A DNA stretch of 64,000 nucleotides from Candidatus Curtissbacteria bacterium (GCA_038326365.1 JBBQJY010000001.1:12128-76127); one strand, 5' to 3'. Positions 10,831 through 59,582 are shown, numbered from the stretch's first letter. Numbers and translations are program-made. Notes: a model not told the origin generated them from the letters alone.

Positions 10831-11021
10831 AGTGTTAACCTAAATTAAATATTTACTCCATCGCGGGGAAGCGTAGCGAAAATCTACCACTGTACCGCAA
10901 CGGTAACTCAAAAAAGAGAAGTCCGAATACCACGATGGCTAACTAGGTCCCGAGATAGGACACATGCCCATTGCGCACAATGATTGCAAGCCTTCTTGAG
11001 GACTATCAAGGAGGTTTTTTT

Positions 11022-12164
11022 ATGCTTGACAAGCTAGTTGCAAATCCACCGCCAAACATCTCTGAGGGCCAGTTTCGCTTTGATCCATCTCATCCCCCTC
11101 TGGCGAGTAAACAAATTGCTGAAGAACTAATTGATCCAATCCCCGAAGCAATGCTTGCCTACAATGTTCGATTCGATATTAAAGCTTACTGCAATTTGCT
11201 AGACCAAAAATCAACTCACACACACGAAGAATTCATAGCTAAGTTTAATTCCCTCAACGCTTTAACCAGAACAAATATCGAAACTTCAATTGCCGAAAGA
11301 TTCAACGCCGAAATACATCGAGCTTCATACAAACTCAAAGACGGCCAGCTAATCCATGAATCCTACGAGCAACCCTTTTTGGAAATAATCAGACGCGGTC
11401 AAGAATTTAGAGAAAAGTCTGGTTCCCAAGAGATCGATCGCGAAAGAGCCGAACTTGCCGGATTTAAAAAAGTCCAGGAGACACTCGCCAGTGAAAAGCT
11501 ATCAAATGACGCAAAAGTAATTGTCATCTCACCCGTCGGCGGCATTTACGGGCACAATTTCTACGATCTTTACCAAAGAACCGAAGATGGCAAAATTAAT
11601 ATGTCTCGTTACAGCTCAAAGAATTCCTATCAAAAATTTCTAGCAGCCGCTCGGCAAATAGACCCATTTTGTGAACTTCCCGATAATCCATCCGATGCTG
11701 ATTTCTTGGCTCGTCCACTCATAACTTATTTGCCGCCTGAACAAATTCAAACCCTCATGGATCCAGATGAAAAAACAATGAGCCAGGAAGAACTTGAAAA
11801 AATAAAAATAGCTTGGGCTCCAGCAATCGGAGGCTACATAGTAGATTTACTAAAAAATCCAAACACAATAACTCAAGAAAATTATTTAGATATCCTGAGA
11901 TTTGCCCAAGCGGCCAAAAACGGCCAAACTATTTCTGCCAAAGATATTCGCCAAATTTTCTTACCTAGAATAACAACAGCTTGCGGCATATCCGGTTCTC
12001 CCTATTCGGTTGCTGATTTCATAACCAACCCTAACCTCATCCAGGATAGGTATGGATCACTCCAAATCCATTGCCAGGAATGCAACACTAGTTATCCGCG
12101 AAATTTCGGTAAACTCGAAGAAAATTGTCGATACTGCGGCGGCACCAAGGGAATCGTTTGCTAA
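11022..12164 (+). CDS. Hypothetical cytoplasmic protein with a C-terminal CxxC...CxxC zinc-ribbon
   Basis: The ATG at 11022 is preceded by aaggagg at 11008-11014. The C-terminus is CQECNTSYPRNFGKLEENCRYCGG. Confidence 0.5.
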   Translation: MLDKLVANPPPNISEGQFRFDPSHPPLASKQIAEELIDPIPEAMLAYNVRFDIKAYCNLLDQKSTHTHEEFIAKFNSLNALTRTNIETSIAERFNAEIHRASYKLKDGQLIHESYEQPFLEIIRRGQEFREKSGSQEIDRERAELAGFKKVQETLASEKLSNDAKVIVISPVGGIYGHNFYDLYQRTEDGKINMSRYSSKNSYQKFLAAARQIDPFCELPDNPSDADFLARPLITYLPPEQIQTLMDPDEKTMSQEELEKIKIAWAPAIGGYIVDLLKNPNTITQENYLDILRFAQAAKNGQTISAKDIRQIFLPRITTACGISGSPYSVADFITNPNLIQDRYGSLQIHCQECNTSYPRNFGKLEENCRYCGGTKGIVC

Positions 12165-49720: not shown

Positions 49721-49969
49721 ATGCTTATTCTTGTGCGTAAAGTCCAGCAAGGTATCTGGATAGAAGGCGATATATGGGTCAAAGTCTTGTCTATCGAACG
49801 TGACGGAGTAAAACTTGGCATTACGGCGCCCGATGATGTTAAGGTTATTAGACAAGAACTCGTTGCCGAACTTGAAATTCCAGAGGATTTGGCAAATCCT
49901 GGGAAACCTAAAGACCATTTAGGTGGTATGTCACAAGGTCCAGAAGCTCCTCGTGGCCGGAATCTCTGA
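49721..49969 (+). CDS. csrA: Carbon storage regulator CsrA
   Basis: MLILVRKVQQGIWIEGDIWVKVLSIERDGVKLGITAPDDVKVIRQEL matches the CsrA consensus. Confidence 0.8.
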   Translation: MLILVRKVQQGIWIEGDIWVKVLSIERDGVKLGITAPDDVKVIRQELVAELEIPEDLANPGKPKDHLGGMSQGPEAPRGRNL

Positions 49970-49980
49970 ATCACAACTTC

Positions 49981-50010
49981 TTGACATGCCCTCTCAAATT
50001 TTGAGATAAT
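49981..50010 (+). promoter_or_regulatory. Sigma-70-like promoter for pyrG (TTGACA-N18-TGaGATAAT)
   Basis: ttgaca at 49981-49986 and an extended -10 tgagataat at 50002-50010. The predicted TSS is about 50015-50017, in ggcgggc. Confidence 0.45.
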
Positions 50011-50018
50011 TCTGGCGG

Positions 50019-50074
50019 GCACCCCAAGTGGGTGCAGTAAGTCCCCTGAGCGCAAAGCGGAAGGGGATTTTTTT
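50019..50074 (+). terminator. pyrG leader: an upstream hairpin plus an intrinsic terminator hairpin (tcccct...agggga + T7) that sequesters the RBS immediately before the pyrG ATG
   Basis: gcaccc (50019-50024) pairs with gggtgc (50030-50035). tcccct (50042-50047) pairs with agggga (50062-50067), followed by ttttttt (50068-50074). The ATG is at 50075. Confidence 0.5.
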
Positions 50075-51703
50075 ATGAATACAAAAGTTATCTTTGTATC
50101 TGGCGGAGTAATTTCTGGAATAGGAAAGGGCGTTGCTACCTCAAGTATCGGCCTTCTTTTAAAATCTCGGGGTTTCAAAGTCACCGCAATTAAAGCAGAT
50201 CCCTACTTAAACGTCGATGCCGGTACCTTGAACCCGATAGAGCACGGTGAAGTTTTCATTCTTGACGACGGTATGGAGTGTGATCAAGACCTTGGCAATT
50301 ACGAACGTTTCCTAAATCAAAGTCTCAACTCAACGAACTACATGACGACTGGCCAGGTTTTCAAAACGATTATAGACAAAGAACGAGCTCTAGGCTATGA
50401 AGGTAAAACAGTAGAATTTTTTCAAGATCCGCCTAGAGAAATCATCAAACGTATTCAAGATTGTGCAAAATTTAACAAGGCGGAAATAATTGTCTTTGAA
50501 ATTGGCGGGACGGTAGGGGAGTATCAGAACCTGCTTTATCTCGAAGCAAATCGCCTAATGAAGTTAACCAGCCCTCGAGACATTTTACATATCCATCTCA
50601 CTTATCTGCCTATTCCTTCATCAATAGGGGAGATGAAGAGCAAACCTGCCCAAATGTCTATCCAGCAACTCGCTCAAGCCGGGATTCACGCAGACTTTGT
50701 TCTTGCACGCTCTCAGGTAGCAGTAGACGAAAAACGAAAAGAAAAAATCGCAATCGCCGTTGGCATCGAGCAAGACAGCATAATTTCTGCTCCAGATGTC
50801 GAAAGCATCTATCAGGTACCTCTAAACTTTGAAAATCAAAATCTTTCCGAAAAAATTCTGCAAAAATTGGGAACAAAACCAAGAAAAAGTGATCTTTCGG
50901 ATTGGAAAGTGATGGTCAATAGCACTCTTACAGCCAAAAAAACAGCCAAAATTGCTATGGTCGGGAAATATTTCTCGACTGGCGATTTTACACTCTCCGA
51001 CGCTTATCTTTCTGTCATCGAATCAATTAGGCACGCAGCCAGTCGCTTTGACATTAAAGCGAAAATTGCCTGGATCGATTCTGCTCAAGTAGAAAAAGAG
51101 GGTGTGAACCTTTTAGCAGGATACGACGGTATCGTGGTTCCTGGCGGCTATGGTTCTCGCGCGGTGGACGGCATTTTAACCGCTATCAAATTCGCTCGGG
51201 AGGCAAAGATTCCGTACTTTGGTCTTTGTTATGGCATGCAACAATTAGCAATTGAGTTTGCAAGGAACGTTTGCCAAATGCGCGACGCTAACACCACAGA
51301 AATTGACCCAAACACAAAACACCCCATAATCCATGTCATGGAATCGCAAAAAGATTTGGTGAAATACCATAAACTTGGGGGAACGCAAAGACTCGGATCC
51401 TGGGAATGGAAAGCAAAAAAGGGCACAAAATTTGCTGAATCTTATAAGTCACTCACAGGCTTTGACCGTCATCGCCACCGTTACGAATTTAACAATGAAT
51501 TTAGAAAGCCTCTCGAGGATAAGGGTCTGATAATCTCCGCAACAACAAAAGACGACAAGCTCGTAGAAGCGTTAGAATTAAAAGATCACCCCTTCTTTGT
51601 TGGGGTACAATTTCACCCAGAGCTTAAATCTCGCCCTCTTGCCCCCCACCCACTTTACGTGTCGTTTATGGAAGCCGTTTCAAAGCAAAATAAACCACGC
51701 TGA
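50075..51703 (+). CDS. pyrG: CTP synthase
   Basis: MNTKVIFVSGGVISGIGKGVATSSIGLLLK. Glutamine amidotransferase region GLCYGMQ. 542 aa. Confidence 0.95.
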   Translation: MNTKVIFVSGGVISGIGKGVATSSIGLLLKSRGFKVTAIKADPYLNVDAGTLNPIEHGEVFILDDGMECDQDLGNYERFLNQSLNSTNYMTTGQVFKTIIDKERALGYEGKTVEFFQDPPREIIKRIQDCAKFNKAEIIVFEIGGTVGEYQNLLYLEANRLMKLTSPRDILHIHLTYLPIPSSIGEMKSKPAQMSIQQLAQAGIHADFVLARSQVAVDEKRKEKIAIAVGIEQDSIISAPDVESIYQVPLNFENQNLSEKILQKLGTKPRKSDLSDWKVMVNSTLTAKKTAKIAMVGKYFSTGDFTLSDAYLSVIESIRHAASRFDIKAKIAWIDSAQVEKEGVNLLAGYDGIVVPGGYGSRAVDGILTAIKFAREAKIPYFGLCYGMQQLAIEFARNVCQMRDANTTEIDPNTKHPIIHVMESQKDLVKYHKLGGTQRLGSWEWKAKKGTKFAESYKSLTGFDRHRHRYEFNNEFRKPLEDKGLIISATTKDDKLVEALELKDHPFFVGVQFHPELKSRPLAPHPLYVSFMEAVSKQNKPR

Positions 51704-58571: not shown

Positions 58572-59582
58572 CTATTGCAAATAACGAAGAACCTGGTGAG
58601 GCAAAATATGACTTCCATAGATCACCAAAAAAACAATTAGGCCCCAAGCAACAACCGCACTAAGTAACGGAGCATCACTAAGTAAAACTCTTTCGGGAGA
58701 TTCGCCTTCGCGTTTTTCATAAATTACGTATAAATATCGCATGACACCATAAATCACAAATGGTACGGAAGCCATCAGCCACTTAGACGCCAAAAATGTT
58801 CTAGGCAAAAAATCACCAAATAAATTTAAAACTTGAGGCCCAGCAGAAGGAGGGGGCTGCAAAAAAGTAAACATGGTGTACGAAAACCAGCAAGCAGTAG
58901 CAAACATAACGGTGAGAGCATCAAGAAGATTTTCTGGGTATTTTGCCAAGATTTCTCTAGTGTTCATACCCTCTTTGCCAGCGCCAATAAGAAGCGTACG
59001 TTCACTTCTTCTTTTACCAATAGCCAAAAAAAGAGCCAAAGAAGCAACGGTGAGCATGAACCAGACTGTAACGTGTGCATCAATTAAAACTGCCCCAGCA
59101 TAAACTCTCAACAAAAAACCAGACGCGATCGCCAAAATATCCAAAAGCATGTACGATCTCAAAAACAACGAATACACAATTTGCAATCCGATATATATAA
59201 CCGCGGCCCACATAAAAAATGGCAAAAGTGAGCTTGCCAAAATCAGTGCCACGCAAAGAATAAAGGTAGCCCAAATAAGAGCGATATAAGGATTAATTCT
59301 GCCTGCCGCGATAGGCCTCTTACTTTTAAATGGATGTGATATGTCGCGTTTTCGGTCAATTACATCATTAATAATGTAAATACCAGAAGTAATAAGACAA
59401 AAGATAAAAAATCCGAGGGTAGTTAAAAAGAACTTCTCGTTATTAAAAAAAGATCCTTCGAAAACAAGCGGACCAAATAAGGCTAGATTCTTAAGCCACT
59501 GCCTTGGCCTAGATGATACAAATATCCAAAAGGGTAGCCAAATTATTTCCGGACCACGTTTTGTAAATTGATATTTAACCAT
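58572..59582 (-). CDS. UbiA-family polyprenyl-phosphate transferase (decaprenyl-phosphate phosphoribosyltransferase-like)
   Basis: N-terminus RPRQWLKNLALFGPLVF. UbiA motif NDVIDRKRD. Eight to nine TM helices. Confidence 0.6.
   Translation of the reverse strand: MVKYQFTKRGPEIIWLPFWIFVSSRPRQWLKNLALFGPLVFEGSFFNNEKFFLTTLGFFIFCLITSGIYIINDVIDRKRDISHPFKSKRPIAAGRINPYIALIWATFILCVALILASSLLPFFMWAAVIYIGLQIVYSLFLRSYMLLDILAIASGFLLRVYAGAVLIDAHVTVWFMLTVASLALFLAIGKRRSERTLLIGAGKEGMNTREILAKYPENLLDALTVMFATACWFSYTMFTFLQPPPSAGPQVLNLFGDFLPRTFLASKWLMASVPFVIYGVMRYLYVIYEKREGESPERVLLSDAPLLSAVVAWGLIVFLVIYGSHILPHQVLRYLQ

Follow-up and report, generated by a model that had tools for sequence, protein, structure and literature searches.

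The 105 nucleotides at positions 49970-50074 of the window, the 64-kb stretch of DNA analysed here, fill the whole gap that separates a CsrA-family gene (49721-49969) from pyrG (50075-51703), both recognised with Pfam. They most likely contain the pyrG promoter and the 58-nt leader of a Curtissbacteria-like Patescibacterium. This leader is probably a CTP-sensitive reiterative-transcription attenuator of the kind described for Bacillus subtilis pyrG. A Bacillus-type reading, in which a GGGC start is combined with a C/U-rich arm able to pair with non-templated G residues, had been put forward in an initial annotation and is strongly supported by comparison with 19/19 relatives.

The B. subtilis mechanism was described by Meng, Turnbough and Switzer in 2004 and is taken here from the summary in PMC7039003. 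In that system, regulation depends on an initially transcribed region of 5'-GGGC with +1 on the first G, on a purine at template -1 and on the 5' portion of the attenuator, which is rich in pyrimidines (PMC7039003). Three G residues are optimal; regulation is poorer with 4-5 G, and slippage is suppressed when the run is longer still (PMC7039003). When CTP is low, up to 10 extra G residues are added; these pair with the pyrimidine tract and termination is prevented (PMC7039003). The pyrG gene of Streptococcus agalactiae has a similar transcription start sequence and an upstream rho-independent terminator, and reiterative G addition was detected there by RNA-seq (PMC4448216). The cis-elements defined in this literature are all matched in the window: the GGGC initially transcribed region, the pyrimidine-rich attenuator arm and the purine at template -1.

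In the proposed mechanism, RNA polymerase would start at G50017 and make GGG. With ample CTP, C would be added at +4 and elongation would go on, so that the UCCCCU/AGGGGA hairpin and U7 tract form and transcription terminates at the edge of the start codon. With scarce CTP, the polymerase would slip on the three template C residues and extra G residues would be added. The resulting 5' poly-G would pair with UCCCCU once that arm has emerged, before the 3' arm is made. The terminator would then be blocked, and transcription would read into pyrG with the region before the AUG left open. Sequence analysis yields the elements with their geometry and conservation, as well as the predicted pairings; from these we infer the start site, G addition, CTP dependence, termination and any translational component. 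We know of no study of intrinsic termination or slippage by a Patescibacteria RNA polymerase.

Promoter and leader of pyrG

The features of the region are as follows, with coordinates given for the window.

49981..49986, + strand: -35 hexamer TTGACA of the pyrG promoter, read from the sequence
50000..50010, + strand: extended -10 region TTTGaGATAAT, with TG at 50002-50003 and the hexamer GATAAT at 50005-50010
50016..50020, + strand: initially transcribed region, C(-1) plus GGGC; predicted +1 at G50017, with the putative slippage tract and the CTP-requiring +4
50019..50035, + strand: hairpin 1, GCACCC, loop CAAGU, GGGUGC, with arms at 50019-24 and 50030-35 (RNAfold)
50039..50047, + strand: 5' arm of hairpin 2, AAGUCCCCU; its all-pyrimidine core UCCCCU (50042-47) is the proposed poly-G landing site
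50048..50061, + strand: apical part of hairpin 2, GA-GCGC-AAA-GCG-GA, with a small inner stem (RNAfold)
50062..50070, + strand: 3' arm of hairpin 2, AGGGGAUUU; purine core AGGGGA (50062-67), Shine-Dalgarno (SD)-like
50068..50074, + strand: U7 tract, putative termination point, directly adjoining the start codon
50075..51703, + strand: pyrG, CTP synthase of 542 aa, ATG at 50075; Pfam CTP_synth_N (E 9e-95) and GATase

The strong promoter claimed upstream of pyrG, with its TTGACA, TG and GATAAT elements, is present at 49981-50010 and is close to the consensus. It scores 11/12 plus the extended -10 TG in a pattern scan, and TTGAC-N-TGn(T/G)AnAAT has its sole match in the 64-kb window at this promoter. 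The elements in the earlier description, TTGACA-N18-TGaGATAAT, are right but the spacing is not, since the 18-nt spacer reaches from the -35 to GATAAT and not to TG. Six bases, tctggc, lie between GATAAT and GGGC. The sequence GGCGGGC occupies 50014-50020, and, counting from the -10, the canonical +7 position falls on G50017, where GGGC begins; as a matter of geometry only, GATAAT-N6-GGGC fits a promoter with +1 on this base. The predicted start of pyrG transcription is G50017, and the base at -1 is C50016, which gives a purine at template -1. As general motifs, GCGGGC and TTTGAGAnAAT occur in the window at chance frequency and thus do not reflect a genome-wide promoter habit. The combination of promoter, GGGC and terminator is found solely at pyrG in the 64 kb.

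When the segment from +1 to the ATG is folded with RNAfold, exactly two hairpins are predicted, with an energy of -27 kcal/mol (z = -3.67; 1/200 shuffles did as well). The second of these is the tcccct-N14-agggga hairpin with seven T residues ending at the pyrG ATG, which had been described from the sequence and is confirmed at 50042-50074, with 14 nt between TCCCCT and AGGGGA. The further upstream hairpin reported to overlap the G-rich start (gcaccc/gggtgc, 50019-50035) is likewise found by RNAfold, and it takes in +3 to +8. The outer stem of hairpin 2 has 9 bp (50039-47/50062-70), the last three of which use U-tract bases. A predicted intrinsic terminator is thus placed between the predicted start and pyrG. 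A permissive scan of both strands of the window yielded 82 terminator-like sites composed of a hairpin and a T-run. The mean pyrimidine fraction of their 5' arms is 0.52, and only the pyrG hairpin (1/82) has a 5' arm that is 100% pyrimidine. Within the window, pyrG and one riboswitch gene are the only real gene starts abutted by a hairpin and T-run. On the minus strand at 59239-59211, a TGGCAAG/TTTGCCA hairpin with T6 is followed at once by an in-frame ATG (59213). This ATG lies inside an ORF called at 58572-59582 and may be the true start, with a terminator-like structure ahead of it.

The window leader and that of B. subtilis belong to the same gene and share a sigma-A-type promoter, a +1 on GGGC (predicted in the window) and a pyrimidine at non-template -1. 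Both also have a C/U-rich 5' arm in the terminator, UCCCCU in the window and CUCCCUUUC in Bacillus, and capture of this arm by extra 5' G residues in the nascent RNA is predicted for both. The distance from the -10 to GGGC is 6 nt in the window and 7 nt in B. subtilis (TAGTAT-N7-GGGCTC). The window leader is 58 nt long compared with ~180 nt in Bacillus, and its U-run adjoins the start codon, whereas ~110 nt separate the two in Bacillus. The window leader differs further in its extra 5' hairpin, its SD-like 3' arm and its host, a Patescibacterium and not a member of the Bacillota. Because the U-run adjoins the start codon, the choice to terminate would be made where the coding sequence begins, and the hairpin overlaps the ribosome landing zone.

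The Rfam family RF02371 (PyrG_leader) has no match in the window at its gathering score (65 bits), nor at 49900-50150 with E <= 10. The same model matches the B. subtilis-group loci L056 and L051 at 87.8 bits and misses Mesobacillus (L041) and Fictibacillus (L050), so RF02371 is a narrow family and the negative result in the window concerns sequence membership only. The window leader is not a sequence member of RF02371, though it is likely to work as the Bacillus pyrG attenuator does. A detector that looks for a promoter followed by N5-8, then (non-G)GGGC and finally a terminator picks out the Bacillaceae control loci and passes over most other Patescibacteria pyrG loci.

Two other groups of systems bear comparison. 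The Lactococcus and Streptococcus pyrG leaders, likened here by description, also have a similar transcription start sequence and a terminator; they belong to another phylum and come with transcript evidence, whereas the window leader is known from its sequence alone. In systems with start-site slippage on U-tracts, the polymerase likewise senses a nucleotide pool through a homopolymeric tract and without a regulatory protein. Slippage in those systems is non-productive, however, and the transcripts are released without a terminator or antiterminator pairing.

Conservation of the leader among relatives

The pyrG loci of relatives were collected from metagenomes and by exact-protein look-up. 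The comparison set comprised the 19 relatives with upstream DNA (L081 to L087, L129 and L161 to L171), whose PyrG proteins are 67-90% identical. The window and these relatives give 20 leaders and 19 distinct sequences, as the L081 and L082 leaders are identical; the GGGC-anchored alignment holds 18 unique sequences. PyrG homologs at 76-90% identity bear the names Candidatus Curtissbacteria or Patescibacteria, and the nearest species-representative genomes by PyrG are Daviesbacteria-like, at ~57% identity. On these grounds, the sequence places the window genome in the Microgenomates group of the candidate phyla radiation.

Homologs lacking the hairpin or the G-start had been named beforehand as evidence against an attenuator; both are kept in 19/19 relatives. 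TTGACA, a 17-19-nt spacer, (TTTG)AGAnAAT and N6-GGGC were found in all 19, with TATATT as the -10 in L086. Among the unique sequences, the -35 is at the aligned position in 17/18 (in L083 it comes one base later, giving a 17-nt spacer), and TTTGAGAnAAT is kept in 17/18, L086 being the exception. GGGC lies exactly 6 nt past the -10 in the window and in every relative. The base preceding GGGC is C in 16 and T in 2 of the 18 unique sequences and never G, so that -1 is a pyrimidine in all relatives and the G-run always has exactly three residues. Invariant or near-invariant columns of the alignment are confined to the -35, the extended -10 and GGGC. Variation is seen in the promoter spacer, past the C and in most of the 6 nt ahead of GGGC, of which only the last two (usually g-c) are mostly conserved.

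A G+C-rich hairpin followed by U5-8 is also present in all 19 relatives. Its arms are UCCCCU/AGGGGA, UCCCCC/GGGGGA, CCCUCC/GGAGGG or UCCUCC/GGAGGA in some relatives and GCUCCC/GGGAGC, AGCUCC/GGAGCU, GCACCC/GGGUGC or GGCCC/GGGCC in others. The arm sequences thus turn over, complementarity is retained and the 5' arm stays C/U-rich. A motif, Y-run-(G/U)AGC...GCGAAGG-R-run, recurs in the hairpins of relatives. The leaders range from 25 to ~126 nt in length and contain one to three hairpins. In 15/19 relatives, no more than ~6 nt separate the U-run from the start codon; in L087, L162, L163 and L167 the hairpin and U-run are 29-50 nt upstream of the start codon.

The relatives form one clade, and part of this conservation could be due to shared descent rather than selection. 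Membership in one clade would also suit a generic structured 5' UTR or a constitutive leaky terminator, in which GGGC is a G start or G+C-rich discriminator (GTP, stringent control) with no role in CTP sensing or slippage. Promoters with a +1 G sense GTP in Firmicutes, and 5' hairpins stabilise mRNAs. Such a reading is unlikely, as it leaves unexplained the invariant GGG-then-C with a pyrimidine at -1 amid varying neighbours, the constant C/U-rich 5' arm through complete sequence turnover and the restriction of the combination to pyrG in 64 kb.

The gene upstream of pyrG is csrA in the window, L163, L164 and L171. In L165 it is a divergent phosphoribosyltransferase gene, in L168 another divergent gene and in L169 mazE. 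Since the leader is kept although the upstream gene differs, the element belongs to pyrG and is not a terminator of the upstream gene. The hairpin does lie ~70-100 nt past the csrA stop codon (49969) and might be read as an intrinsic terminator of csrA, preceded by a chance match to a promoter. The -35 and -10 elements between the csrA stop codon and the hairpin are nevertheless kept in 19/19 relatives, including those with different or divergent upstream genes, and there is no room for another pyrG promoter between U7 and the ATG. A csrA terminator is therefore highly improbable. The called lengths of the CsrA-family gene products (49721-49969 in the window; L163, L164, L171) vary, at 82, 106, 112 and at least 170 aa.

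The csrA neighbour also raises attenuation by a protein or ligand, with CsrA at the GGA motifs of the hairpin (cGGAaGGGGA), a protein resembling PyrR and a riboswitch of an unrecognised type as candidates. GGA motifs are found in and beside the 3' arm, csrA is immediately upstream in the four loci listed above, and a hairpin motif, GUCCUGAGC...GAAGGAC, recurs in relatives. Yet L165, L168 and L169 keep the leader without a csrA neighbour, the hairpin tips show little sequence conservation, and leaders as short as those of L083, L166 and L161 (25-29 nt) could not accommodate an aptamer. Rfam searches at the gathering score gave no PyrR or riboswitch match at the locus, and with E <= 10 they returned no PyrR, riboswitch or other leader, only chance-level matches. 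Protein or ligand attenuation is thus very unlikely as a whole; the CsrA-binding reading, like the csrA-terminator reading, was rejected because the upstream gene differs among relatives.

The shortest leaders suggest what a reiterative-transcription attenuator of this kind may minimally need. A hairpin identical to hairpin 1 of the window, followed by a U-run, is the sole hairpin in L166, L083, L087 and L161 and is thus the terminator there. In L166, hairpin 1 of the window recurs letter for letter (GGGCACCCCAAGUGGGUGC), and AUUUUUAGUU and a UUG start codon come right after it; the L083 and L161 leaders resemble it. As read from these loci, the smallest element is a putative promoter, GGGC, C-run, hairpin, U-run and start codon, with a 25-29-nt 5' UTR and no SD-like sequence. 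In the window, L129 and L164, hairpin 1 is present but lacks a U-run, which follows a second hairpin instead.

At the other extreme, three-hairpin pyrG leaders were observed in L170 (~505-600), L165 (~520-600) and L084 (~1400-1500). All of their 5' arms are CCCUCC-like and all of their 3' arms GGAGGG-like, so that any arm can pair with a neighbour's partner. In L084, the equilibrium minimum free energy structure pairs the 5' CUCUCCUUCGC with the terminator's GCGAAGGAGGG. For L170 and L165, nascent folding predicts capture of poly-G by the first C-rich arm. It is a matter of speculation that poly-G triggers a register-shift relay of CCCUCC/GGAGGG pairings in these three leaders. A relay in the window, from the hairpin 1 3' arm GGGUGC to UCCCCU, was rejected by inspection; only ~three G-C pairs are possible, and direct poly-G/UCCCCU pairing is therefore preferred.

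Predicted poly-G pairing and the proposed read-out

Competition between poly-G and the terminator was evaluated by folding. At equilibrium, 0-12 G residues were appended to the 5' end and the probability of the terminator stem was computed, in line with the RNAfold comparison proposed in the initial annotation. The effect is present in the window but partial and modest, with the terminator probability going from 0.95 to 0.54 at 12 G. In L129, L083, L085, L086 and L087 the terminator collapses with 3-7 extra G residues, and appended A residues have no effect. The experimentally proven leader of the B. subtilis group (L056) shows no equilibrium change with added G. The equilibrium test is therefore non-diagnostic either way, and this result is consistent with a kinetic mechanism.

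As a replacement, the nascent RNA was truncated just before the 3' arm, and the probability that the 5' arm pairs with the 5' G-run was computed. In the window, this probability is 0.01 with the templated GGG, 0.68 with 2 extra G residues and 0.94 with 4 or more. Capture of the 5' arm likewise goes from 0.05 to 0.97 in L129, from 0.01 to 0.79-0.98 in L164, from 0.02 to 0.82-1.0 in L168 and from 0.24 to 0.70-0.99 in B. subtilis. With 10 extra G residues, the window leader can form a poly-G/UCCCCU structure that leaves hairpin 1 intact, at -23.3 vs -23.8 kcal/mol for the terminator fold.

The position of the hairpin raises the question of translation. The initial annotation took agggga to be the ribosome-binding site and termination and initiation to be mutually exclusive. 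The 3' arm is indeed SD-like, but neither SD function nor exclusivity could be upheld. An SD-like 4-mer core at -18 to -5 was found at 4/52 ORF starts vs 9.4% background, a crude count made on longest-ORF starts in the window. In addition, an SD-like element is absent from the minimal leaders L166, L161 and L083, and the 3' arm is automatically purine-only because the 5' arm is pyrimidine-only. For these three reasons, the SD role cannot be affirmed. Most ORF starts in the window are preceded by A/T-rich sequence, and the organism may initiate largely without SD sequences. Whether or not an SD exists, initiation would be hindered by a hairpin whose end is 7 nt from the AUG.

A design similar to that of the pyrG leader occurs in the window at an AdoCbl-II riboswitch (RF01689, 10849-10940, 38.3 bits), whose platform (10849-11022) also has a purine-rich SD-like 3' arm and U7 followed immediately by AUG. 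The riboswitch is followed by a hairpin, CCTTCTTGA (10991-99)/TCAAGGAGG (11006-14), then T7 and ATG 11022. This platform, CCUUCUUGA/UCAAGGAGG-U7-AUG, contains the perfect SD AAGGAGG in the layout of the pyrG leader. For the downstream gene, the longest-ORF start, TTG 10971, is probably wrong and ATG 11022 more likely. The two systems differ in the sensor, which is a ligand-binding aptamer in AdoCbl-II and, in the proposal for pyrG, the polymerase at +4. The shared platform, with a perfect SD in the riboswitch, speaks for some translational component at pyrG.

Carried further, the same GGGC slippage sensor might have a translational read-out instead of, or besides, the transcriptional one. The hairpin would then block the 30S subunit until poly-G/UCCCCU pairing opens it, and U7 would be an unstructured ribosome landing site and not a termination signal. 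The 7-nt distance to the AUG, the ability of the 3' arm (AAGGGGA) to pair with an anti-SD, the closeness of U-run and start codon in 15/19 relatives and the AAGGAGG-U7-AUG design of the AdoCbl riboswitch all fit this arrangement. However, a G+C-rich hairpin with U5-8 is a canonical intrinsic terminator, and the hairpins of L087, L162, L163 and L167, at 29-50 nt upstream, cannot mask the start. SD-like motifs are unenriched, and the other genes in the window are preceded by A-rich regions and not by U-runs. This version of the read-out has a low probability, and transcriptional attenuation remains the preferred reading.

Daviesbacteria-like leaders and wider meaning

A second type of pyrG leader was observed in nine Daviesbacteria-like loci (L002, L003, L004, L005, L006, L007, L088, L091 and L116), whose PyrG proteins are 53-57% identical. 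Their upstream regions contain a -10, N5 and GGGCC(U/C)(U/C)AAAAAU(C/U)C (e.g. L003 ~990-1053, L091 ~1470-1500). Downstream there is a C4-5 run, e.g. GAACCCCCAAGGAAA beside the start codon, and no obvious terminator was seen at these loci. Such loci could combine the same slippage-prone start with another read-out. Two Curtissbacteria leaders, L168 (GGGCCCUUAAAAAU) and L086 (GGGCCCCAAAAUCC), carry the Daviesbacteria-type 5' motif plus a terminator, which suggests that the two leader types are homologous.

It is conceivable, though rather doubtful, that CTP sensing by slippage at a GGGC start is an ancestral module of at least two Microgenomates lineages with lineage-specific read-outs. In that case, the read-out in Curtissbacteria may be a set of ultra-compact attenuators, with leaders of 25-29 nt, a hairpin from +3 and a U-run touching the start codon. 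The Daviesbacteria-like leaders, with no evident terminator, would imply a new read-out of 5' poly-G, e.g. through translation or mRNA stability.

Patescibacteria are uncultured and have tiny genomes with few transcription factors, and they convert UTP to CTP by means of CTP synthase. To our knowledge, gene regulation in this group is almost unexplored. Full-text searches, which cover the literature incompletely, found no report connecting reiterative transcription or pyrG attenuation with Patescibacteria or the candidate phyla radiation. What is new here is the phylum, a leader without Rfam-model coverage and the compact architecture that abuts the start codon. Protein-free sensing of CTP by RNA polymerase would suit cells with few transcription factors. 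If the attenuator reading is true, a Bacillota mechanism known since 2004 extends to a distant phylum, and the question becomes one of common ancestry versus convergence. The leaders of 25-58 nt would then be the most compact natural versions of such an attenuator and ideally suited as minimal templates for structural and in vitro studies of reiterative transcription. Existing groundwater metatranscriptomes already allow a direct check, through reads with extra 5' G residues.

Several Patescibacteria-like contigs in the collected set (L001, L004, L005, L013 and others) are titled 'uncultured Gammaproteobacteria bacterium' in their MAG records. Their PyrG proteins are closest to those of Curtissbacteria or Daviesbacteria, and the titles are probably mislabels.
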